Origin: a virus
IMG/VR virus record: IMGVR_UViG_3300027969_000001
Location: 32,001-96,000 of that record
Strand: one strand, 5' to 3'
Length of the DNA: 64,000 nucleotides
Each line of letters opens with the position of its first letter. The first letter of the stretch is position 1. Shown one piece after another: positions 47,459 through 60,211 of the stretch. The notes under the pieces were generated by a model that saw only the letters and a list, made by a program, of their open reading frames with translations, was not told the origin of the DNA and made no database searches. The translations under genes were made by a program, and so were the position numbers.

Positions 47459-50400
47459 CTATAATCCCATCGTCTTTAGTTCTTCTACGGTTAATCCAAG
47501 GAACTCTGAAAGCATATCGTAGTGCTCTGCTTTGAGCCTTCTTAGTCCTTCGTTTGCTGGAGCCGTAGCGTAAGCTATTGCTTCCGCTATGTATTCCGCC
47601 CTGTTGGTTGCAGCGTAATCGCTTATTTGCTTAGCTAGTGATGAATCGTATTCTGAAAGCATGTTTACCATTGAGGAAAGTTCGTCTTCAATTTCGGAAC
47701 TACTTCTTCCGGCTTTTAGTTCGTCTTTTGCCCACGAGGTGGCGGCTTTTAGTTCTTTATAGATTCCATCTAAATCTTCTGATTCACGTTTGAATGCAGC
47801 TTTATTTGTCTTTTTAGCCATAGCGTGGATTGCGTGTCCAAGTTCGTGACGTATTACGTACTCTCCGGTAAGGTTTGTCCCCGGAATATAGTCCTTAAGG
47901 ACTTTGTCTGGGAATGCTATGAAGCCATAAGACGGTGTGTATACCCCGCCTCCGGCGTACCAGTTAGTTGGCTCTAGGTCGGATTCAAAAATAAACCCTT
48001 GCTTGAGCCCAAAGTCAGTTAGAAGCATTGGTGGTATGTCAAATCTTCCGAGCATGTTTCTCAATGATGGTGAATTGCTTAGTGTCAATTCAACTTTTTT
48101 CTGAAGTTCTTTTTGTTTATCCCAATTAATTTCTAGTTCTTCAATGAGTTTATTAATTTTTCTAATACTCTTGTTTGAATTCTTTGTGTGCGGAGAACTT
48201 CTCAATATTGATGCAAGCTCTTCAGGGGAAGACGGAACGGCTCTGATTGATAATTCATTTGCAGAATAAGCAACATATTCAGCGTCGCTGCGAGGTTTTG
48301 CTCCTGGACGGCCTTTGCGAAGCCTCCTATTTGACCTGCCGCTACTTAATCGCGTGGATTCAGGAGAGGAATCTCCTGCCTGTTCTCCTCCAGCATTGAG
48401 TATGTAATCTTCATCGAATGCGCCAGGGGTACCGCCGTAGTCTATGTCGTATTCAGAAACCGCAGGTATGCCTAGACGTCTTGATAGCGCTTGAAGTTTT
48501 TCTCCTTCGTCTGGGTTTTCTCCGGTGTAATCATCCCTTACTATGATGTAGGCAATATCGTCTAGCGAAATTCCGCCCTCGCCGGGATGTACCTGTGCTT
48601 CGACTGGATAGTCGAAAGTGTCTTTTTCTCCAGCGTTTCTCAACATCATCATGTTTATATCAGGAGAGTTCATTGCTGACGTTGTTCCCATTAAGCTGAG
48701 GGAGTCTGATTCTGTTACGGTTGTTCTGTCTTCATTTCCTGGCTTGAGGACTAATAGGTAGTTGCCGTACTGCTGACCAGAACCAGCCACTTCTTCAGTT
48801 ACTCCACCATATGCAGCCATTCCATAGATTGGTCTGAATTCTGGAGCCATATCTGGTGGATATCCAAACAGTGTTACTTCCGCTTGCTGTCTAGCTTGAG
48901 GATTGTAATGTCCATTGCTTCTGCCTGTTTCAAACTGACTAAGAAGTTTTTTGTTTTTTATAAGACCGCTTATTGCTTCTTTGTCTACAGCAACGACTAC
49001 GCGATTATAATCCATTGGCCCTGGCTGGAAATAATCTCCACCCATGCCAACGAGTTCTTTTGCGTATTTATCGTATTCGCTTACCAAGTCTTCAACGGTA
49101 CCTCTAACACGCATGTCCGCGGACATTATTATTTTTTTACGTTCATTTTCTAGATACTTAGCGCGTGTTATGTGTATCCCGGCACGAAGAACCAAGCCTT
49201 TGGCAATGGTTTCAGCATCCCATTCCATCATTTGAGGGTCTCTAGATAAAACTATTCCTGTTATTTTGTCAATTGCTGGACCGATGCGTTCACTGAATGG
49301 AGACCTCTCTCTAATACGTGCCCATGGCCCCTTTGAAGTTTCTAGTAGGAATGGGTTAATTTCTTCTCCGTCGAATGCTTTTTTAAAACGAGGGTCATCG
49401 AGTACACCATCAATTAGTTCACCAATAACAGCACCTATTTTAGGGTCTATAGTTTCGTCCAGAAGCCAAGATACTGGTCTTCCTTCTTTTCTTGCGATAG
49501 CAATATCTTCGGTTGGTTCCTTCAGTGACCTTGGATAGGCAGCAACAAGGGCTTTGGCGTGTTCGTTACTTACGTGCTCGGTTAGTCCGGACGAAAGCTT
49601 TTTTCCAGCGTTTTTCCCAACCGATTCTCTTTGTCCGTCAAGAACTTCCGGAGTGGCGGAAGCGGCAAAAGCTCTGCCATCCGGGGATAATGCATCAGAG
49701 TGTTGAAGGTTCTGTTCAGGCCATGTATCCCTGTGAAGGCGCATCATTTCTGATGCTATTCCCGTACGTCTGCGGGTTCTGGCTACGCCAGTCCTTAGGA
49801 TTTCGCTGTGGTCATCCTCGTTCCACTTTATGGTCGTCATCAGTCCTATCGAATTCTTGGAGTCTTCCATTCGCTTTAGGGCATCTAAGACGTTTACTTC
49901 TTCAATAGGAACTGGCCCTTTTTTATCAGTCATCGGATTGAAACCAAGTTTTGTCCAGCTTTCGGAAAGTTTTTGTCTAGCGTCATTTACGCTTCCAGTA
50001 TCATAAGCAGTTATGGTTCCACCAGCATCAAGAACTACCCAGTAGCTAGTTTCGTTTCCATCTTTAGATGTGTGTTCAATATGTCTTGCTGAAACTATGC
50101 CGTAGTAGTTTGCATTCATAACGCTCTCTACTACTTTTTTCTTACCGGACGACATGCGCAGTTCTTGATTTAATTCATCAGGCTGCAGTACTTCTGTTCC
50201 GGAAATGGAGCGAGGTTTTACCAGTGTTGATAAGTCCACTTTCTTGTTGCCCTGTTTATAGTTTTTAATAGCTCTAACAATAAGTGCGGGTGTTATCGCA
50301 TACAGTCTATTCCTGCCTTCATCAAGAGTAACGGAAGAGAATCCAACAAAAGGTCTCTGCATGCCGATTATTTGTTTTTCATAACCAGGTCCAAGCTTGT

Positions 50401-53400
50401 TGGTCCAGTGTTTGTGTTGTTCTCCACCAATAATCCACTGCGTTCCACGCATGGCGTACTGCCATCTTTGCATCATTACACTGTCATGTACTTTTAAGTC
50501 TTTGCCTCTGTTCTCGAAATCCCAATCTCTCGAAAGATTTTCTGCTATGTGTTTAGGGATTATTCGATGCGCGTATCTACCAAAATACCCCCCGGCCAAT
50601 TCTTCTCCAGTCATGAGTGCGCTCAAGAACTGATTGTCCGCTTCCTCGAGGGCCTTGATGACAGACTTTACATCGACTTGTTCATTCTCAAGTCCTGCAA
50701 TTCTTTTATGTGCTTCCGATATGAAGTGAGCAACATCCCACCCTCTAGCAGCGAGGTCTATTACTTGGTCTGGACTATTCTGACGAAATTCTTGAGATAG
50801 GTTACTAGACAACAATCCAAGTGAATTTCTGTTGTAGTTCCCAGCGTGTATTGTCCCATCAGTAGAAGCTGATTCAATAAACTTTTTTAATTCTTCAATT
50901 TGTTTTTCTATTTGATTATTTCTAGCTTTTACATCAGCGACGTTGATATTGTTAAGAGCTTTTGTGTCAGCAGAAGCAACATTAAAACCGTCAGAACCAA
51001 CAGTTTTTTTAGGGTTAAGGACTCCGCCATCAAGTTCTGATGAGCCTTGATGTATTAAGAATTTTTCTCCATCTGAAGCGCCATTACCGAATAGTTCCCA
51101 GTATTTATCTCTATCATTTTGTTTGAGTTCTAATATCTCTCGTGTTTCTTTAAGTAGGTCATCGTACTCTTCTGGAGTTATATCTTCTAGGTCAAGTACG
51201 TTTTGTTCAATTCTTATCTTCTTGCTATCATGTTTATATTGCAGCAAGGCTACTTCTTCTTTTAAAAGTCTTGACTTTTCATTAATATCGTCTTCAAATT
51301 TCTTAATCCAGTTTTTAACAAAAGAATCACGTTCGGGTTCCTTGTCGCTTCCCGGATATCTAGTCCACGACTCATGTCTTGCAGTAAACGCATCTTCAGC
51401 TCGAGTCACTATGTCTGCTTTTAGTAAGTTTTTTGCTTGAGCTTCCGATGAATGTATGGTCGGAGCATTCATGTTTTTATCTGAAGCAACCACAACGTCA
51501 AAGTCTCCGCCAAGCCAGTCGCCAGTTTTATTATAATGCTCCAAGGCCTGAGTAAATCTTCTCATATAGGAAGATTGTTCGTCTAGTTTTTCTTTCTCGT
51601 AAGAAGTATTAAATCGGGTATCAGCTTTGTACGGAGTTGGTTTTTCCAATACGTCTGTTTCTCCAGATGAAAGCTTCTTGGCCTCGATTTGTTTAGCCAT
51701 TGAGTCTCTATCAACGTCAACTAATTTTGTAGCAAGTGACTCTCCGTCTGCGCTGTATCGTGTTGCTTCATCAACTCTGAAAACCATCGCCTGCATCGGT
51801 CGGCCTAGTATTACTGTTTCATCTTCTTCTAGACACCCAAAGCCAGTAAATGGAGTAGAAAAAATATCTTTAATTGGCACAAAAGCCTTTATGACGTATC
51901 CACTTTGGTCATTACCTGGTCTTCTACTGAACGACCTGGCTGTAGCTTCATTGATTGACCAAGACGAAAGTGGCCTCATACGTACTTCACGTATATCCAT
52001 ATCGCCTATGGCTATTGGTTCTCCAAACGCATTTTCACCAGCAGTAATTCCTCTGTATACAGCAAGATGTGTTATCCCTCTGTCTTCGAAATACTGCTGC
52101 GTTGCTTCATGAGATGTTTGCAGGAATTCTCCAACAAATTTTCTTTGCATTTCGCTCAGGACTGGAGCACCATCGAAGTCTTCCATAATCTGTCCTGGGC
52201 CAGGGGATGCAACAACTCTGTCCATCCTATATTGATTTCCTCGGTCCCAACCAACAGCACCGTCTACGGAGAACAGTTCTCTGGCTACGTTCTGCATTGA
52301 TAACGCAACGTCGTTGGAGTCGTTTGCTGATATAGCCCATGTATGAACCAATCCTGATATTAACGCCTGCTTCAGAACCCCTTGCCCTTCTGGGGTATTG
52401 GCGTCAAACTCTACAAGACCACGGCTTTTCAACAATTCTTCAGGACTAGGTATTACTTTTTTAATATTTTGTATAGTTAGTTCTTTTAATACTTCTAGGT
52501 CTTTTGCGTCGTCCGGCGTATTTTTGTCAATTTTGGCGACCATCAATTCAGACAAGTCTTTGTAATCAGTACCTTTCTTTATTCCGTAGCCTTTTTGCAG
52601 TATCTGTTCCCAGTCATCCGGACTATTCATAAGAGAATATGAATCTATTGATATTAAGGTTCCGTCTTTTAGCCTGTATATGCCCAGGTAGTCATTTTCG
52701 GGATTGCCTTCTCTTCTTTGACGTGTTTCCCTATTCCCCCACATGTCAAAGTAATACAACTGAGTTTTTATTGCAGTTATATGGTCTCCGGACCAGCGGC
52801 GCATTTCAGTTGGACCTATGGAGCCTATTGAATAATCATCCATGGTTTTTTCATACATGTCCCACATGCTTGATTTATCAAAAAGCTCACCAGCAGTCAG
52901 TGATTCAAGTTTAGGAATAAAAGATTCGTTCCATATTTTGAGAACGCGCTGTTCTACACTGAAATCTATTCCCGAAGCTACCGAGCCTTTTTTGGGATTG
53001 TAAAAAAACTTACTTCCATCGCGCACTCCTTCGAGTGTTCTGTTAAGGATGAGTGATACGTCTCTAAAATTCTCGTCATCAGCAAAACCAACTCCGCTTC
53101 CAGGCATTGAAGTCTGAAACATTTTTACAAAATCTTGAGGAGTAAAATCCATAGATTCTGCTATTTTTTTAGAAATCTCTCTTTTAATTTTTGGAGCAGC
53201 AAGACTAGAATCAATATCGTATGTTCCAGGAATAGAAACCGCATCGTCAATAAACATCTGCAAGACGTCTTTTTCGTCAGCAGGTTTTGTTGGCGAGTAA
53301 GGCTTACGAGTTGTCGGTATTGGAACAAACTTGGCAATCTGTGCTTTTTTCCACTGCGTATCTCTTGATTGAGGAATAGAAGTTTCCGTTATTCTAGAAC

Positions 53401-56400
53401 GGCGCAAACCTTCTATTTCCGAAAGAGCACTTTCTAGTCTTCCGCGACGTTCGTCTCTTACTCCAGGGGAACGCCCAGATGAAAGAATCCGACCAGCCCT
53501 GTCGCCATCACGCCATGGCTGATAGGTGTCGTTTCCGCCAAGCAAGGTTGTTACAGCTTTCTTCAAGGAAGGACTAATCATTTCATTTTGTATTTTTTCG
53601 TCTGGATGCAGTACGGCGACAATGCCCTCAGCCATGGTTTCTGCCATGTTGACGTTTCCGTATGAAGTGAGCAAACGAGGAACGTCTGGAGTTTCAGAAA
53701 ACGGAACATCGTTTTCAAACATTGTTATTCTGTCTTGGTCATATGTAAATTTATTAAATTCAGAAGCAACAGCAAGTGCACGAGCATAGTTTGTGTTGCC
53801 CTTGTCTTTGCTGCCGTATCTTTGACGTGTATGAATTGTTGTCTTTGGTCCGCCCTCAGAGTCAGCTATGGCCTTGAAGTGCAGCCAGTGACCCCATTCG
53901 TGAAGCAGCGTTCCTGCAAGGGAGTTTTCTATTGACTTCTGTCCTTTTACTGGGGACTGACCATTCCATCGAAGAGTGCTTTTGGTTACTGACGGTATTG
54001 AGTCATCCAATGCTTCAAGAAACACCTCTTTGTTGAGATAGACGGTGTCCATGTTTGGACTCATTCTTCCTCTTGCCCTAACCGGCTTACCGTCGTTGCG
54101 TTGCTTTGCAATCGCTGCAAATTTCTCGCGCACTTCTGGTATTGCTTCATAGGCTGCTATGCCTTCTGGGTCCATGAAGGAGAAAGAAGGAGCTCCGTGG
54201 TTTTCAAAAGCCCACTTCATTTGTGGGTTATCTTCAATGGATTGTGCCAGGAGTTCTTGCATGGCTTTTACGTTGTCTGGTGAGAAGTCCGGGGTATCCC
54301 AAGGGTTTTTTTGATGAAAATCATCATAGTATTTCTGAAATTTTAATCTAGTAGCAGGGTCTACAACATCAGCGCCAGCGTAGTCGTCGAGCCACATTTG
54401 AAAATGTTCTTCACGATTTGAAGGAACCAAAACCTTAGCCATTTGTTCAGAGCTGAGACCTCTTAGCCATGTATTTGTAGTCTTTCTTATCTCGCCGCCA
54501 AGCACGCTCTTGTCGCCGTACTTGTAATCCTTGGCTCTGTGTTCTCTTAGAAGTTCGCGCTCGTTGCGACCAATTTCTATTATTGGTCTTTGGGGGGAAT
54601 CTGGTCTAATTTGTATAGACGGACGTTCCTGCCCTGAAGCAAGTGAGGGTCTGCTGCTCTTTCCCAAAATATCGTGCGCAAGAGCTAATTCAATATCTTC
54701 TTCGTTGGCTTCATAAATTGGCTTGCTTCCAGAAGACAGTCGTCCACTAGTAGATGCTGTATCAAGCTTCTTAATAACTGAATTAAAATCACCAGCATAT
54801 ATACGCGTTTCGGAGTCAGATACGCCTTCAATATCGAATACGGTTCTTGGTCGATTACGGTAGCCCATTGTTTCGTTCATATTTAGGTCGGACTCGTCAA
54901 GTCTGCCAACCCTGAGCATTCGTTCGGCGGAGTACATCATGTAATGAAGATGCTTAACGACCATTTTTTCTTGAGGCGTTAGAGGTGAGTCTGGGTGGTC
55001 CGCAAGGGACATCATGGCAAGGTCGTTTGCCCATTCTCCATGGCGGTCAAAAGCTCTACCGGTTCCGAGATGTCCGAATAGGTCATGGGTGTCTTGAAGT
55101 GCCTTGCCATAGAGTCCCATATTGAATTTATGCGGGTCAGTTATTCCACCTATGTAGCCACGAAGATATGTATCCGTGCTGTGGCTGATTCTTGAACCTG
55201 GAAGAAAAAGCTCCTCGTCACCCATTAGTTCGCCCGCACGGCGCGTAAGTTCCCTAACAAACTTGCTATGTTTTTTCCACGCTTCAAGATACGGTTCCGG
55301 CAATGTATCTTGAGTTAATGCTGGCAAACCAATACTGTCGCTCCTGATGACAAATCCTTTTGGAGCCAACATTTCCAACAGGGGGAATCTTTCCCTCGCC
55401 TCGTCGTTTTCAAATTCTAAAGTAGAAGCGTCGTTTTTGTATATTTTTCTTGCAATAATGTTTCCGTCGGAATCTTTCCATACGGAACCATTGAAAACAA
55501 CCGTATCTTTCATTGCTTCATCAAGTATTGAAATAACGTCATCACGCTTAGGCAACTCGACGGTACGCCAGTCTCGTTTGTCCGGTATCTGTTCTGCCAA
55601 TTGAGGTATCGGGTCAGCGGAAACAAACGGAATTCCGTCTGAAGAAATATCAATCGATATTGATTCAAGTAGCTGTTTTCCGGTTTCGGAAAACGCATTG
55701 TCCACTTCAACGTCAAGTAGTGTTTTCCCAGCAATTTCTTTGGTCAAGCCGGGAATAGCATCTTCAATAGAATATTTCTGTTGTTTTGTTAGTTCTTTTC
55801 CTGTCGTTTCTTCTATTTTTTTAATTATTCTCTCGGCAACTTTTTTACCCGTTAAAGACTCTCTAGTTAGTCCTATGTCGGCAGCTTCTTGCTGGGTTAC
55901 TTCTGTGGGTTCATTAAATGCTTCAACTACATTTGCGCCAGAAGAGAGTCTTGTGCTTTCCCCTTCGTTGCGATTTGAGTATATTTTTTCATCAGAAAAT
56001 CTTTCGTCTTTCTTTATCTCGTCTATAGCCCTATACATAGCATCAAGAAGAGACATTCCTTCTGCTTTGTATATTTCTCGCAAGCGGGCCATCTCTTCCG
56101 ATTTTTGACGACTCAATTCTGCGTCAAAATCCATAAGAACATAAGACAGTCCGCTACCGTCTGGATTATGTTCAAGTTTGAATGCTCTGTTTTTAAGCTT
56201 GTTTGATTCTTCGAGGCCTTCTAAGACTTTTTTTACTTTATTAACAGCCTTTGTCTGGCCTTCAGTACCCTTTCCTATTTTTCCAATCAATGCGTCTAGG
56301 GAGTTATATGCAAGTTCGTCGTCGTATACTTCTATTACAGCTTTTTTGGTTTTCTCGCCGTTTTTGTAAACTGGGCTATACAGGTACCCATATCGTTTTA

Positions 56401-59400
56401 TGTGCTCTAGCTTTAGTTCTTCTTTATAGGCTTCATCTTCTTTGAAACGTTTTCTTCTGACATTTAGTATTTCAAGTGCTTTTGCCCAAGTATCAACATC
56501 TGGTCCGAATGCTTCATTTAGTGCTCTAATTTGTGCTTCTTTGTCTATTTGTCCAAAACCATCTTCGGCAGGCTCAAGTCTGTTGTATCGCTTGTATTTT
56601 TCGTAAAGTTCCCAATACTTGAATTTCTCCTGCTCAGGGTTGGCAAATTCGAGTGTTTGGTCGAAACTGTCATCATGATTTCCACCTCTGGCTACGGTAA
56701 AACGAGTTGATTCTCTGCCAGAAGAAAGTCTTGTGCTTCCCTCTTCTTTCTGGGCTGCAACAAAAGACTCTTTGTCTGATTCAAATTTTTTTACATCGGC
56801 GTCAAACTTTTCGCGCTCAAGTCTTAGTTTTTCATCGCGGCGCTTTCTGCTAAGTACAGAAGTGTCCCAGTTGTTTTCTATAGCACCATCAATTATCTTT
56901 TGCATTACCTGACTGGTTGCGAAGGCATCAGCGTCTGCGTTGTGATGTCCGTCGCCAAGTTCCACGCCGAGGTATTCGGTAATGGCGGCAAGGCTGCTGG
57001 ATGGTTTGGTTGTCCCGTCTCTACTACTTACGATATGTGGGCCATCTGGGCTATCTTCGCTCCATACCGGAAGGGTAAGAGAACTTATTTCGCGAGTATC
57101 TAAATAACCGCGTGGTGTCCAATCGATACCGCTTTCACGTAAAGCATCATCAAGAACGTTCTTGTCGAAAGTTGCGTTCTGAACGCCGATGATTGCGTCT
57201 GGGCCAATAAACTCAGCAACCTGTCTATGCGCTTCAGCCATGGGCATTTGCGTGGCAAGCCATTCATTGGTAATCGGATTACCGTCTGCGTCTTTAAGAT
57301 TTGCTAAAGACCATTCTCCTAGTGGTTCTTCTGGGTTCATAAACAGATTTAATCTGCCTATTTCTTCCCCATTTTTCATGCGAACTAGGCCAATTTGTGT
57401 TGGTTTTCCGTTGGTTGTGGCTTTACCAAACTCGTCAAAATTCAGGCCGGTTGTCTCATAGTCGAGAAATACAATTTCGGCATCGTTGTATTTCTTCTTG
57501 AACTCTTCCCATGAATTAGAGTCGCCAAAGTATGAATCTGCTTCACCAAGGAAAGCTCCAAGCGTTGGTTCGCGTGGATATCGTGGAGCCTTGCCGCTAG
57601 ATAGGCGGTCTCCCATCTGTTCCTCAAGCTGGTTAAATGCTTGAGAATCGTCAACTTCAGGAGCCCGTGAGGTTTTAACTGACAGAACCCTGGCAAGTTC
57701 TTCCTTGAGCACATCTCTCTTCCAAACATCTTTATCTTCTTCGCTCTTGCCACTAGGACCACGGTATTCAAATATAACAGGGAGTTTTTCGGACTTGACC
57801 AGAACTCTTAGCCATGCTTCATATGGCGTAGTTGATTTATCTGGGATTATTTCTTCTTTAGACAACCCCTTATCCCCGAAGTTTTTGTCAAACCACACAT
57901 CTGTCATTGCTGGGTTAAACATCTCAACATCGTCAGTTTTAAATACTCCGCCCCTAATGTTAGGAACTACCTCTATGCCATACTCTCGCATTAGTTCATC
58001 ACGTGATTGCGCCATATCAATCAGGAGACTCACATTGCTTTCGTTATTCTCGTTGTAGTCCTTGCTAAGTTCTCCCAACTCTTTTCTAAACTCTTTTGGT
58101 GTAGCAATTATTGCTTGAACTTCTTCAGGCTTGAATCTTCCAAGAACTAATGCTTCTTTGTAACTTGCTGATATGCCATTGTCGGAACTAGCCTCAAATG
58201 CTCCGGATGGTGTTGGGTAAGTGTCGCCAGTCTTGTAGTCATAAAGTATGCCAAGTGGACTAAAACTACTAAGAAACACTCCATCTTCACCCAGTGAACT
58301 GAGTTGAAGAGGCGCATTGTCTTTCATTGACATATCAACTGTGTCTGCATCAAAAACCCTAGTGCGCTCTGCAACTTCTGGTCGTAGCACAAAATGTGAA
58401 TCGCCGTACTTTTGTGTTCTGTTCTGCGAAGCCTCTAGTGCTGCTCCTGCAGGACCTTCGTACATAAGTTTAATGTCGTCTCCGTATATTTTTTTAAACT
58501 TTTCTTCTCGTGCTAATGCTGTTTTTGAAGTAGTAACATAGCCCGATGATGGTCTAAGTTCTCTTACTTCTGGAGGGTCTTCCACCCCTTCTTCAAACGG
58601 TAAACCTAATAGATTGCCTTCAACCTTTCGTCTGGCACTGGTAGTAATAGCATCGCCTATTAGGTTCATAGACTCAATATCAGCTGCTTCTCTTTCTTCT
58701 TTGTCATGTTGAGTGAGTATGGTGCGATTGCCCTTAATAAACGAGGCAATGCTTCTTGTCCTTACGAGCACCCGTGTGTCGATAGATTTACCATACGCTT
58801 CAGACGCCTTCCTCATGTCTGCATTCAACTGTTCTGGGGTGGCTGTTTTTAGATAAGTTTTAAACTCGTCAATTTTTGCAACCATTTCAGTATCGCCCCT
58901 AGCGATATGTATCTGTCTTGATATTTCTAATGCTACGCTCGGAGGAATAGGGTCTCCTTTTGCCCATACTCCAGACTCACGAAGTCTTGCTTGTATGGGG
59001 AAAAACGCTGCCTCGGCATCCCTGCCGGTCATCTCCGAAGTAAAAAACTTTCCTTCTGCTACTACTTCGTTTATGTAATCAATAGCCTCTTGCGGAAGAA
59101 TTGTATCTTTTTTAAAGTAATAGTCAATTTGACGCTTGGCGGACTCTGCTGTTTCTTTTATTCTTGTATCGAGTTTTTCTTTGCTTACTTTTTCTTCAAA
59201 GTTCGTGCCGTAACCGAGTCGTTCTTTCAAGGCTCTTAGTTTCCCAAATATTTCCTGCGTATAAGCTGCGGATATATCGGCATTATTTATTTCGGTACCA
59301 CTAGAAAGTTTTTTGGTTACTTCTGGGTCGTAGCCCCATTCAAGCCAAGAGTCGCCGGCTGTATAAATATCCTTAGCCTTGACTCGCTTCTTTATGATTT

Positions 59401-60211
59401 GATATTCGCCACGCAGTGCTCCATCGCCGTGCATAACTGCGTACTCTCGAATTGGGGTAACCCAGTCACCGGGGGTTATCTTCATGTCGTCTGGTGGAAG
59501 ATTCTTTAGTCTCTCTATTTCGTCTCGAACACCCTGAGACCAATCGCTAGGTTCGATACTTCTGCTGGTTCCTTCTGGAAGTTTGCCACGCGCCATATAT
59601 CTGGCGAGTTGTTTTTCTAGTTTTTCTATCTTTTTACTGTTTGAAAGAGGCACCGCACGATAAATAGTCACCTCGGCATTTGGCTTGCCTTTGTATTGCT
59701 TAATCAGGCTGGCGGCTATTGGGTCAAGCTGGTCATCCCCGACACCATAAAAACGTATTGCATCGGCAGAATAGACGTCCTCTGGATAAACTCCACCATC
59801 TGCCAACATGTCATGTAGGGGAGCGCCTGCGCCTCTTTCTGGAGCTCCATGCTGGCCTCTGTAGTCCTCGTTAGCGCCCGAAGACATTCTTCTGGCTGTC
59901 TCAGTGCCTCTTGTGGGCGAATCTATGCCAATAAAACGTGGATTAGTTGAGCCTTCGTCTACCCAGCCGTCATTGTCGGGGTCAAAGTTGCTGAGGGTGG
60001 GTTTTCTGTAGCCACGAACTCCGCCCGTCGGTGCATCAATGTCCATCCCGCCACGGCGGCGTCTTCCTTCGCCAATGCTTGGCCTATCCACTAGTCGGCT
60101 ACCGACTAATCGGGCGAGTCTATTTCCAAGCGCTTTCTGCTCTACTGAGGCAGGGCGCGCTCTACGGGATTCCTCTATGGGAATAAGGAACTCATTATCA
60201 TCGACAGACAT
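47459..60211 (-). CDS. 4250-aa polyvalent protein: ART-like domains, two DUF3626-like domains, DEDDh exonuclease, two HExxH zincins, HDxxGH domain, GNAT
   Basis: DYETTG..QNATFD..HNADAD; HEWGH and HELGH; VYRG..LSSWS..EDE; RRRTGIA; SQFETG..RPIYG..EAQVH. Confidence 0.85.
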   Translation of the reverse strand: MSVDDNEFLIPIEESRRARPASVEQKALGNRLARLVGSRLVDRPSIGEGRRRRGGMDIDAPTGGVRGYRKPTLSNFDPDNDGWVDEGSTNPRFIGIDSPTRGTETARRMSSGANEDYRGQHGAPERGAGAPLHDMLADGGVYPEDVYSADAIRFYGVGDDQLDPIAASLIKQYKGKPNAEVTIYRAVPLSNSKKIEKLEKQLARYMARGKLPEGTSRSIEPSDWSQGVRDEIERLKNLPPDDMKITPGDWVTPIREYAVMHGDGALRGEYQIIKKRVKAKDIYTAGDSWLEWGYDPEVTKKLSSGTEINNADISAAYTQEIFGKLRALKERLGYGTNFEEKVSKEKLDTRIKETAESAKRQIDYYFKKDTILPQEAIDYINEVVAEGKFFTSEMTGRDAEAAFFPIQARLRESGVWAKGDPIPPSVALEISRQIHIARGDTEMVAKIDEFKTYLKTATPEQLNADMRKASEAYGKSIDTRVLVRTRSIASFIKGNRTILTQHDKEEREAADIESMNLIGDAITTSARRKVEGNLLGLPFEEGVEDPPEVRELRPSSGYVTTSKTALAREEKFKKIYGDDIKLMYEGPAGAALEASQNRTQKYGDSHFVLRPEVAERTRVFDADTVDMSMKDNAPLQLSSLGEDGVFLSSFSPLGILYDYKTGDTYPTPSGAFEASSDNGISASYKEALVLGRFKPEEVQAIIATPKEFRKELGELSKDYNENNESNVSLLIDMAQSRDELMREYGIEVVPNIRGGVFKTDDVEMFNPAMTDVWFDKNFGDKGLSKEEIIPDKSTTPYEAWLRVLVKSEKLPVIFEYRGPSGKSEEDKDVWKRDVLKEELARVLSVKTSRAPEVDDSQAFNQLEEQMGDRLSSGKAPRYPREPTLGAFLGEADSYFGDSNSWEEFKKKYNDAEIVFLDYETTGLNFDEFGKATTNGKPTQIGLVRMKNGEEIGRLNLFMNPEEPLGEWSLANLKDADGNPITNEWLATQMPMAEAHRQVAEFIGPDAIIGVQNATFDKNVLDDALRESGIDWTPRGYLDTREISSLTLPVWSEDSPDGPHIVSSRDGTTKPSSSLAAITEYLGVELGDGHHNADADAFATSQVMQKIIDGAIENNWDTSVLSRKRRDEKLRLEREKFDADVKKFESDKESFVAAQKEEGSTRLSSGRESTRFTVARGGNHDDSFDQTLEFANPEQEKFKYWELYEKYKRYNRLEPAEDGFGQIDKEAQIRALNEAFGPDVDTWAKALEILNVRRKRFKEDEAYKEELKLEHIKRYGYLYSPVYKNGEKTKKAVIEVYDDELAYNSLDALIGKIGKGTEGQTKAVNKVKKVLEGLEESNKLKNRAFKLEHNPDGSGLSYVLMDFDAELSRQKSEEMARLREIYKAEGMSLLDAMYRAIDEIKKDERFSDEKIYSNRNEGESTRLSSGANVVEAFNEPTEVTQQEAADIGLTRESLTGKKVAERIIKKIEETTGKELTKQQKYSIEDAIPGLTKEIAGKTLLDVEVDNAFSETGKQLLESISIDISSDGIPFVSADPIPQLAEQIPDKRDWRTVELPKRDDVISILDEAMKDTVVFNGSVWKDSDGNIIARKIYKNDASTLEFENDEARERFPLLEMLAPKGFVIRSDSIGLPALTQDTLPEPYLEAWKKHSKFVRELTRRAGELMGDEELFLPGSRISHSTDTYLRGYIGGITDPHKFNMGLYGKALQDTHDLFGHLGTGRAFDRHGEWANDLAMMSLADHPDSPLTPQEKMVVKHLHYMMYSAERMLRVGRLDESDLNMNETMGYRNRPRTVFDIEGVSDSETRIYAGDFNSVIKKLDTASTSGRLSSGSKPIYEANEEDIELALAHDILGKSSRPSLASGQERPSIQIRPDSPQRPIIEIGRNERELLREHRAKDYKYGDKSVLGGEIRKTTNTWLRGLSSEQMAKVLVPSNREEHFQMWLDDYAGADVVDPATRLKFQKYYDDFHQKNPWDTPDFSPDNVKAMQELLAQSIEDNPQMKWAFENHGAPSFSFMDPEGIAAYEAIPEVREKFAAIAKQRNDGKPVRARGRMSPNMDTVYLNKEVFLEALDDSIPSVTKSTLRWNGQSPVKGQKSIENSLAGTLLHEWGHWLHFKAIADSEGGPKTTIHTRQRYGSKDKGNTNYARALAVASEFNKFTYDQDRITMFENDVPFSETPDVPRLLTSYGNVNMAETMAEGIVAVLHPDEKIQNEMISPSLKKAVTTLLGGNDTYQPWRDGDRAGRILSSGRSPGVRDERRGRLESALSEIEGLRRSRITETSIPQSRDTQWKKAQIAKFVPIPTTRKPYSPTKPADEKDVLQMFIDDAVSIPGTYDIDSSLAAPKIKREISKKIAESMDFTPQDFVKMFQTSMPGSGVGFADDENFRDVSLILNRTLEGVRDGSKFFYNPKKGSVASGIDFSVEQRVLKIWNESFIPKLESLTAGELFDKSSMWDMYEKTMDDYSIGSIGPTEMRRWSGDHITAIKTQLYYFDMWGNRETRQRREGNPENDYLGIYRLKDGTLISIDSYSLMNSPDDWEQILQKGYGIKKGTDYKDLSELMVAKIDKNTPDDAKDLEVLKELTIQNIKKVIPSPEELLKSRGLVEFDANTPEGQGVLKQALISGLVHTWAISANDSNDVALSMQNVARELFSVDGAVGWDRGNQYRMDRVVASPGPGQIMEDFDGAPVLSEMQRKFVGEFLQTSHEATQQYFEDRGITHLAVYRGITAGENAFGEPIAIGDMDIREVRMRPLSSWSINEATARSFSRRPGNDQSGYVIKAFVPIKDIFSTPFTGFGCLEEDETVILGRPMQAMVFRVDEATRYSADGESLATKLVDVDRDSMAKQIEAKKLSSGETDVLEKPTPYKADTRFNTSYEKEKLDEQSSYMRRFTQALEHYNKTGDWLGGDFDVVVASDKNMNAPTIHSSEAQAKNLLKADIVTRAEDAFTARHESWTRYPGSDKEPERDSFVKNWIKKFEDDINEKSRLLKEEVALLQYKHDSKKIRIEQNVLDLEDITPEEYDDLLKETREILELKQNDRDKYWELFGNGASDGEKFLIHQGSSELDGGVLNPKKTVGSDGFNVASADTKALNNINVADVKARNNQIEKQIEELKKFIESASTDGTIHAGNYNRNSLGLLSSNLSQEFRQNSPDQVIDLAARGWDVAHFISEAHKRIAGLENEQVDVKSVIKALEEADNQFLSALMTGEELAGGYFGRYAHRIIPKHIAENLSRDWDFENRGKDLKVHDSVMMQRWQYAMRGTQWIIGGEQHKHWTNKLGPGYEKQIIGMQRPFVGFSSVTLDEGRNRLYAITPALIVRAIKNYKQGNKKVDLSTLVKPRSISGTEVLQPDELNQELRMSSGKKKVVESVMNANYYGIVSARHIEHTSKDGNETSYWVVLDAGGTITAYDTGSVNDARQKLSESWTKLGFNPMTDKKGPVPIEEVNVLDALKRMEDSKNSIGLMTTIKWNEDDHSEILRTGVARTRRRTGIASEMMRLHRDTWPEQNLQHSDALSPDGRAFAASATPEVLDGQRESVGKNAGKKLSSGLTEHVSNEHAKALVAAYPRSLKEPTEDIAIARKEGRPVSWLLDETIDPKIGAVIGELIDGVLDDPRFKKAFDGEEINPFLLETSKGPWARIRERSPFSERIGPAIDKITGIVLSRDPQMMEWDAETIAKGLVLRAGIHITRAKYLENERKKIIMSADMRVRGTVEDLVSEYDKYAKELVGMGGDYFQPGPMDYNRVVVAVDKEAISGLIKNKKLLSQFETGRSNGHYNPQARQQAEVTLFGYPPDMAPEFRPIYGMAAYGGVTEEVAGSGQQYGNYLLVLKPGNEDRTTVTESDSLSLMGTTSAMNSPDINMMMLRNAGEKDTFDYPVEAQVHPGEGGISLDDIAYIIVRDDYTGENPDEGEKLQALSRRLGIPAVSEYDIDYGGTPGAFDEDYILNAGGEQAGDSSPESTRLSSGRSNRRLRKGRPGAKPRSDAEYVAYSANELSIRAVPSSPEELASILRSSPHTKNSNKSIRKINKLIEELEINWDKQKELQKKVELTLSNSPSLRNMLGRFDIPPMLLTDFGLKQGFIFESDLEPTNWYAGGGVYTPSYGFIAFPDKVLKDYIPGTNLTGEYVIRHELGHAIHAMAKKTNKAAFKRESEDLDGIYKELKAATSWAKDELKAGRSSSEIEDELSSMVNMLSEYDSSLAKQISDYAATNRAEYIAEAIAYATAPANEGLRRLKAEHYDMLSEFLGLTVEELKTMGL

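Follow-up and report, generated by a model that had tools for sequence, protein, structure and literature searches.

We examined a 64-kb window of viral DNA (bases 32001–96000 of the 158,714-bp virus record IMGVR_UViG_3300027969_000001, which has direct terminal repeats) and found that one open reading frame (ORF) on its minus strand, 47459–60211(−), uninterrupted over 4250 codons, encodes a protein of 4250 amino acids (aa), P0001, that is probably a polyprotein of swappable modules whose recurring junction peptide is read by one trans-acting phage endopeptidase (probability about 0.6, judged from sequence). In the mechanism that we propose, disordered linkers connect ~12 modules that fold independently and can be swapped during evolution, and the linker peptide [RK]-[LM]-S-S-G-[RKA] would be the recognition site of a single phage-encoded endopeptidase that acts in trans and differs in specificity among phage lineages. 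This enzyme would cut P0001, two giant proteins encoded in the head module and the tape measure protein into separate pieces; cleavage, the enzyme, timing and virion delivery are the parts of the proposal that we infer. The record represents an uncultured myophage of ~159 kb that encodes a tail sheath, a 1629-aa tape measure, major capsid protein, portal and terminase, as well as WhiB, primase and SSB. Positions are those of the window unless marked as genome positions, and G000 denotes the genome to which the window belongs.

P0001 contains 11 copies of [LM]SSG (at 59876, 59297, 57593, 56717, 55937, 54728, 53474, 51662, 50144, 49586 and 48338, each coordinate being the last base of the Gly codon), compared to 0.18 expected by composition and a mean of 0.19 (maximum 3) in 2000 shuffles of the protein, together with a decayed copy, SLASG, at 54632 (aa 1857). 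A preliminary description of the window had listed these 11 [RKI][LM]SSG copies and the SLASG variant, all of which are present where it placed them, and its claim that the copies use different synonymous codons was borne out. The Leu/Met position is coded by CTN, TTA or ATG, Ser by both TCN and AGY, and the Gly codons vary, such that the motif is conserved at the peptide level. Among Ser/Gly triplets SSG occurs 12 times; an artefact of Gly/Ser-rich linkers was rejected because SGS (1), GSS (1), GGS (0) and SGG (0) are not enriched, unlike SSG. The twelfth SSG, RPSSG at aa 553, lies within the conserved domain of module 3 and was rejected as a junction, as RP[ST]SGY is kept in relatives with other junction peptides; the preliminary description had rightly left it out of the motif count. 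The SLASG column is occupied by RLSSG or SLSSG in aligned homologues, which indicates that SLASG is a true site that has decayed. The logo of 347 distinct junction contexts showed [RK] at position −1 in 62% and [RKA] at position +4 in 71%, with polar flanks, giving [RK]-L-S-S-G-[RKA].

We also assessed where the sites lie relative to module borders, by cutting P0001 at the motif and comparing the pieces with 21 homologous giants of 2403–7353 aa. Matches span the full piece and halt at its ends, and their order differs from protein to protein. Across 81 near-full-length matches in the 21 giants, projected module starts lay a median of 1 aa from the subject’s junction peptide, and 80% fell within 15 aa of one versus 10% under random placement, with the same behaviour at module ends. 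An alignment of aa 1405–2265 (16 rows) contained four conserved LSSG columns amid variable stretches, one of which holds the SLASG of P0001, and an AlphaFold model of the same region (mean pLDDT, the predicted local distance difference test score, 67) placed four of four sites in segments with pLDDT < 50 between folded domains. The placement of module starts and of the modelled sites agrees with the earlier claim that the motif falls between domains and never inside one, for which the preliminary description had suggested a comparison of domain edges with AlphaFold models. It had also suggested a search for LSSG-punctuated ORFs with shuffled domains, and such ORFs were found both in the same genome and among related giants.

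Within G000, 20 of the 21 [LM]SSG copies (shuffle mean 2.2) are in the genome’s four proteins of at least 1000 aa: P0001, P0002 (five copies), P0003 (three, plus VSSG and FSSG variants) and the tape measure (one). P0002 and P0003 are giants encoded between the portal and capsid genes. The gene for P0002 (3369 aa) directly follows the portal gene, and its product begins with a Peptidase_S78 prohead protease domain (Pfam, 3e-8), followed by ArdC-N, MPTase-PolyVal and SF1 helicase domains (Pfam). P0003 (2645 aa) had no Pfam match, and a 566-aa protein encoded between the two head giants had no match to PepSY or any other Pfam model (E ≤ 0.01).

The peptide differs among lineages. Among the homologues of P0001, P0004–15, P0018 and P0023 carry 7–14 [LMF]SSG sites each, P0016, P0017, P0020, P0021 and P0022 have zero [LMF]SSG and carry G-[VI]SGKM-[ST] in its place (type B), and the junction peptide of P0019 is (RS)GFAS[RK]T. 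Sub-types of the peptide are L[AS]SG in P0023 and [LF]SSG in P0036 and P0065. Four related virus records (G001, G002, G004 and G006) were compared over their full length and, with G000, make five genomes, all of which were enriched for their own peptide only, nearly confined to proteins of at least 1000 aa. Observed counts were 21 for [LMF]SSG in G004 (shuffle mean 3.2), 29 for GLAS in G001 (1.3), 37 for STRS in G002 (0.6) and 15 for [IV]SG[KR]M in G006 (0.1). The site motif co-varies with virus lineage and is common to all predicted substrates in a genome, with five types, each in its own genomes. Flanks of the exonuclease module read LSSG in type-A proteins and GVSGKM or [AG][VI]SGKM in type-B proteins, while the copy in P0018 is B-like yet flanked by LSSG and FSSG, which indicates that the peptide tracks the genome and not the module.

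Tape measure proteins, which are homologous (35–42% identical), carry the peptide of their own genome in the same variable mid-region in three lineages: KLSSG at aa 576 in G000, GGLAS twice, at 580 and 589, in G001, and STRS at 624 in G002. The G004 tape measure has a near-match only, KMSSAQ. The same factor thus appears to act on the tape measure as well. In all three lineages this variable region follows a hydrophobic segment; the G000 protein is encoded at genome 149410–154299(+).

Conservation at the peptide level, disordered joints, sharing by unrelated proteins and set-wise exchange between sister genomes are together what would be expected of the recognition site of a single co-evolving trans-acting factor. 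The simplest such factor, and the most likely one, is a site-specific endopeptidase, which fits the predicted processing of polyvalent proteins by zincin or assemblin-like peptidases (PMC5512222). A zincin acting in cis within each giant was rejected, as several punctuated giants have no HExxH motif, and the reader of the peptide would accordingly act in trans. The preliminary description had interpreted P0001 as a cassette of effectors released by site-specific cleavage; the motif does sit at module borders and resembles a recognition site, and a processed polyprotein is the best reading, with cleavage itself a prediction from the sequence. Because the tape measure also has a site, cutting is more likely to take place outside the capsid, whether ahead of assembly or once ejection into the next cell has occurred. 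An extension of this idea, which we consider rather unlikely, is that effector strings and the tape measure are threaded into the host as single chains and cut there by a co-delivered protease at a private ‘postcode’, which close relatives would have rewritten five or more times, perhaps under selection by immune sensors of the host. Such sensors detect phage protease activity via decoy loops, as described for the cyclic oligonucleotide-based antiphage signalling system (CBASS) and T4 gp21 (PMC12991175). If this extension were true, protease and sites would form a fast co-evolving lock and key that governs which cargo modules phages can exchange.

The modules of P0001 delimited by the junction peptides are as follows.

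47459..60211 (−): whole ORF, 4250 aa, P0001, polyvalent multi-enzyme protein with 21 giant homologues of 2403–7353 aa.
59876..60211 (−): module 1, leader, aa 1–112; invariant PTGG...DxDxDGWxDEG; ends with the first junction, RMSSG (aa 108–112).
59297..59875 (−): module 2, aa 113–305; PHROG 2579, annotated ‘ParB C-terminal domain’; ends KKLSSG.
57593..59296 (−): module 3, aa 306–873; distantly DUF3626-like; ends DRLSSG; holds the domain-internal RPSSGY.
56717..57592 (−): module 4, aa 874–1165; DEDDh (RNase_T) exonuclease, Pfam PF00929, E 1.3e-9; ends TRLSSG.
55937..56716 (−): module 5, aa 1166–1425; no family; ends TRLSSG.
54728..55936 (−): module 6, aa 1426–1828; no named family, conserved HDLFGHLGTGRAFDRHGEWAND; folded in the model; ends GRLSSG.
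54632..54727 (−): spacer of ~28 aa (aa 1829–1856), then SLASG (aa 1857–1860).
53474..54631 (−): module 7, aa 1861–2246; HEWGH zincin, HExxH conserved in homologues; ends RILSSG.
51662..53473 (−): module 8, aa 2247–2850; no family; ends KKLSSG.
50144..51661 (−): module 9, aa 2851–3356; no family; ends LRMSSG.
49586..50143 (−): module 10, aa 3357–3542; possible GNAT, Pfam Acetyltransf_1, E 0.034, below the curated cut-off; ends KKLSSG.
48338..49585 (−): module 11, aa 3543–3958; DUF3626 (SopF-type), Pfam PF12294, E 1.4e-8; ends TRLSSG.
47462..48337 (−): module 12, aa 3959–4250; C-terminal HELGH zincin; homologous modules in G001, G002 and P0019.

Scans of single modules against Pfam and PHROG were mostly without match, and PDB sequence searches with six modules returned nothing significant; ubiquitin rows for module 2 in the PDB search were rejected as artefacts of poly-ubiquitin chains with no significant stretch. 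The domain calls of the preliminary description fared unevenly. Its DEDDh exonuclease is confirmed by the Pfam match of module 4, and one of its two DUF3626-like domains by that of module 11. The other, module 3, matched nothing in Pfam or PHROG and showed a weak similarity to module 11 (BLAST 8e-4 over 57 aa), and the GNAT call likewise found a weak match, under the curated cut-off. Both zincin motifs that it named, HEWGH and HELGH, are present, and for the HEWGH module a weak match was obtained to the anthrax lethal factor metalloprotease fold (Foldseek, E 0.02, probability 0.99). No library model matched either of the two ADP-ribosyltransferase domains assigned to modules 2 and 8, or the HDxxGH domain. 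A protein of 304 aa in MW202462 has a relative of module 2 as its C-terminal ~186 aa, and the two end at the same point. In module 3, RP[ST]SGY (aa 553–558, within 57593–59296(−)) is strictly conserved across phages that differ in junction peptide and probably has a function in this DUF3626-like domain. The spacer corresponds to a conserved helical mini-peptide of ~28 aa, KPIYEA..ELALAHD..G (aa 1829–1860), flanked by two junction sites in P0001 and in homologues, and its short helix lies within a disordered stretch of the AlphaFold model, between the two sites. It recalls the spacer peptides of retroviral Gag and may be released as a small peptide.

The N-terminal leader of P0001 (aa 1–107, with RMSSG at 108–112) is 71% identical to aa ~540–620 of P0002. 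A profile search among 1.84 billion representatives returned 48 matches to the leader, with strong matches nearly all at residue 1 of giants or right behind the protease-scaffold part, and LSSG was found at aa ~90–140 in almost all leader-bearing representatives. Leader and first site together resemble a removable targeting propeptide, in that an N-terminal targeting piece is followed by a consensus site as in T4 internal proteins or phiKZ-type cargo. An Atlas look-up of the leader gave no usable match. In L045 and L074 a leader-type giant is encoded by the gene right after the protease, and because the protease ORF there stops before the leader and the next ORF begins with it, the leader was rejected as a C-terminal tail of the protease. 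Modules homologous to those of P0001 (the exonuclease and modules 3 and 9) are also present on head-module giants, in type-B phages and in P0018. On balance, we consider it probable that P0001 is delivered with the virion.

We found a bipartite promoter-like motif, TAGNTNCNC followed after 20–22 nucleotides by TANNNT, in four clear copies (genome 146486(+), 148558(+), 130291(−) and 105598(−)), which precede the structural operons for sheath, tail, protease-giant and capsid, respectively; a fifth, looser match is at genome 73062(−). The P0001 gene itself is ~28 kb from the head module, such that the linkage to head genes that characterizes polyvalent proteins is found for P0002 and P0003 and not for P0001.

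Candidate enzymes were compared across the five genomes, all of which contain both the S78 domain and the gluzincin module found at the N-terminus of P0003. S78 is fused to a giant in G000, G001 and G004, and is separate in G002, G006, L045 and L074. The P0003-type module has invariant H587, E588, H591, E690 and E694 (an HExxH...E gluzincin signature spanning 587–694) and is also found in type-B giants; it evolves much faster than S78, with 37% identity between G000 and G004 compared to ~86%. An AlphaFold model of P0003 aa 1–800 from an 8-row alignment (mean pLDDT 39.6) was too poor to assign a zincin family. This N-terminal region (aa 1–800 of P0003, which is encoded at genome 110339–118276(−)) is universal in the phage group, has no Pfam or PHROGs match and contains an invariant RCPPGTPAANQFTD..G.NCF at aa ~234–254. 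Tentatively, we place the P0003-type gluzincin at the N-terminus of the head giant first among candidates for the cutting enzyme; the S78 prohead protease is a possible but doubtful candidate, and we have similarly low confidence in another phage protease or a host protease.

Several observations weigh against the proposed polyprotein and its delivery. S78 is 72–94% identical across lineages with quite different peptides, which means that a change in its specificity would have been unusually fast. Although S78 clades match the motif types, this co-variation was rejected as evidence because it does not discriminate: capsid and portal proteins diverge in parallel. The major capsid protein is 72–76% identical over the five genomes and alignable from residue 1. 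No junction peptide was found in the capsid or protease-scaffold proteins of any lineage examined, unlike classical prohead-protease substrates. Decayed sites exist, namely SLASG in P0001 and RMASA in P0004, and the homologue P0024 has no recognisable junction peptide of types A–E. P0001 is the last gene of a WhiB-primase operon, preceded on its strand by WhiB, primase and two small genes, with overlapping ORFs upstream and only 49 nucleotides ahead of its start codon. The bipartite putative late promoter was not found in the 120 nucleotides before P0001 (window 60211), and a replication-type operon without this element suggests that P0001 may be an intracellular polyprotein that is not packaged. 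P0024 is a 5459-aa homologue from ENA that shares the exonuclease module and contains long arrays of pentapeptide repeats; it may be a relative without punctuation or the carrier of yet another code.

These points bear on two alternative accounts of where cutting would occur. In the first, which we regard as possible but doubtful, the peptide would be read by S78 within the procapsid, in the way that LxE is read by T4 gp21; the leader would target the protein to the head and be clipped, and modules would be freed at head maturation. The fusion of S78 to the punctuated giant P0002 directly behind the portal gene is in line with this, as are the position of the first GLAS in G001 at aa 526, the end of the protease-scaffold part, the constancy of leader and first site, the agreement of protease clades with motif types and the prediction that assemblin-like peptidases process polyvalent proteins (PMC5512222). 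It is difficult to reconcile with the tape measure, which lies outside the capsid and has the peptide of its own genome in three lineages, with capsid and protease-scaffold proteins that have no peptide, and with a protease that changes so little over five different peptides. In the second, P0001 would not be virion cargo; it would be expressed together with the replication genes and, in the manner of an RNA-virus polyprotein, cleaved in the cytoplasm, yielding stoichiometric host-takeover enzymes. We regard this account, too, as possible but doubtful. In its favour are the place of P0001 at the end of its operon, close behind overlapping upstream ORFs, and the lack of the bipartite motif seen ahead of the genes for capsid, protease, sheath and tail; against it, the leader is common to a head-module giant and restricted to such giants, a leader-type giant lies directly behind the protease gene in L045 and L074, and the exonuclease and modules 3 and 9 recur on head-module giants.

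It is also conceivable, and in our judgement unlikely, that the peptide is not cut and is instead a docking, modification or hinge signal, read for example by a chaperone, packaging factor or modifying enzyme, with the giants being intact beads on a string. Giants of the N4 vRNAP type are packaged uncut (PMC5512222), and Ser, a modifiable residue, is found in every junction type. Yet a tight signal of 4–5 residues that marks each module edge within a disordered linker has the build of a protease site, sites are also present right behind the N-terminal leader and around the 28-aa spacer, and modules are found elsewhere as parts of quite different proteins. That the peptide is a cassette junction kept through recombination, with no role in the protein, is very improbable: module gain, loss and reordering do occur exactly at the peptide, but freely varying codons leave no nucleotide identity on which to recombine, homologous exchange needs more than 12–15 nucleotides, the peptide switches from genome to genome independently of the module, and it is found as well in the tape measure, a protein that is not built of shuffled cassettes.

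Short processing motifs are familiar from other viruses: T4 internal proteins have a capsid-targeting sequence that is cut by the prohead protease gp21 at I/L-x-E, head proteins of phiKZ and SPN3US are cut by their own prohead protease, and polyproteins of positive-strand RNA viruses are cut by 3C-like or papain-like proteases. The predicted processing of P0001 shares with T4 and phiKZ head cargo a short consensus, removal of an N-terminal targeting piece at the first site and ejection as head cargo (the I/LxE site of gp21 is cited in PMC12991175 and prohead protease cutting in SPN3US in PMC10052503). Such cargo usually receives one or few cuts, at the same motif as in capsid and scaffold proteins, whereas here 11–17 sites are predicted per protein, none was found in the capsid or scaffold proteins of any lineage examined, one is in the tape measure, and at least five motifs are used among phages with proteases that are 72–94% identical. 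As in RNA-virus polyproteins, many enzymes are in one chain with a short site, here predicted to be read by a virus-encoded protease, that co-varies with virus lineage; in contrast to them, this is a tailed phage with double-stranded DNA and no single-ORF constraint, the modules are accessory and freely shuffled, and the protease is known only at candidate level. Tal, the tail-associated lysin of lactococcal phage TP901-1, is processed at a glycine-rich linker (PMC11409707), and is similar as a protein of the virion that is cut within the linker ahead of a catalytic domain, at a short motif of small residues, yet it has a single Gly-rich site in one protein, compared to the defined peptide used genome-wide here.

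The closest class is that of polyvalent proteins, which combine 2–15 unrelated enzymatic or binding domains per polypeptide in phages or conjugative elements and for which processing by zincin or assemblin-like peptidases has been predicted (Iyer et al. 2017, PMC5512222). P0001 has the multi-domain character of this class, with ~12 modules, RNase_T and DUF3626 domains (Pfam) and two HExxH zincins, and resembles it in its unrelated effector-type domains (nuclease, zincins, DUF3626/ADP-ribosyltransferase-type, possible GNAT) and in having sister giants in the head module. Hub domains of the class were found by Pfam in P0002 (MPTase-PolyVal and ArdC-N), while P0001 matched no such model and has HExxH motifs only; it differs further in lying outside the head module. 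No junction or linker peptide was described for polyvalent proteins in PMC5512222, in contrast to the strict lineage-specific peptide found here at every joint and in the tape measure. Literature searches, including full text, for LSSG with phage and cleavage found no paper on such a junction code, which agrees with the preliminary description, in which such a linker was not known to have been described, although peptidase processing as such had been predicted in 2017. Phage effector proteins with many domains are already known, as is the trimming of head cargo at short motifs, and what appears to be new to the searched literature is a strict, genome-wide and lineage-switching junction code, with 11–17 predicted sites per protein and a site in the tape measure.

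Phages hold a large stock of anti-defence and host-takeover enzymes in polyvalent proteins, and the junction peptide bears on the question of whether these are deployed as intact giants or as released enzymes, which it opens to a direct biochemical test with a linker reporter and candidate protease. A strict junction peptide also predicts exact module borders, which aids the cloning and assay of dozens of uncharacterised enzyme families, and these closely related lineages would offer a natural set of orthogonal protease/site pairs that covers five or more specificities. The tape-measure site would connect the processing of tail proteins with that of cargo.

Among cultured phages, a megablast search with the ORF gave no match and no close relative of the phage was found in the phage collection, where matches were limited to the protease domain at ~38% identity. 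The S78 domain is closest to actinophage proteases at this level and, with the WhiB gene, suggests an actinobacterial host. The ORF for P0002, outside the window (genome 120118–130227(−), 3369 aa), combines in one chain S78, a Cys-rich part that resembles a scaffold, the leader, ArdC-N, an MPTase zincin and SF1 helicases. In L045 and L074 the protease ORF (543 and 551 aa) stops just before the leader, and the leader-giant is the next ORF, overlapping and in another frame; this split, compared to P0002, reflects either fusion/fission or a programmed frameshift.

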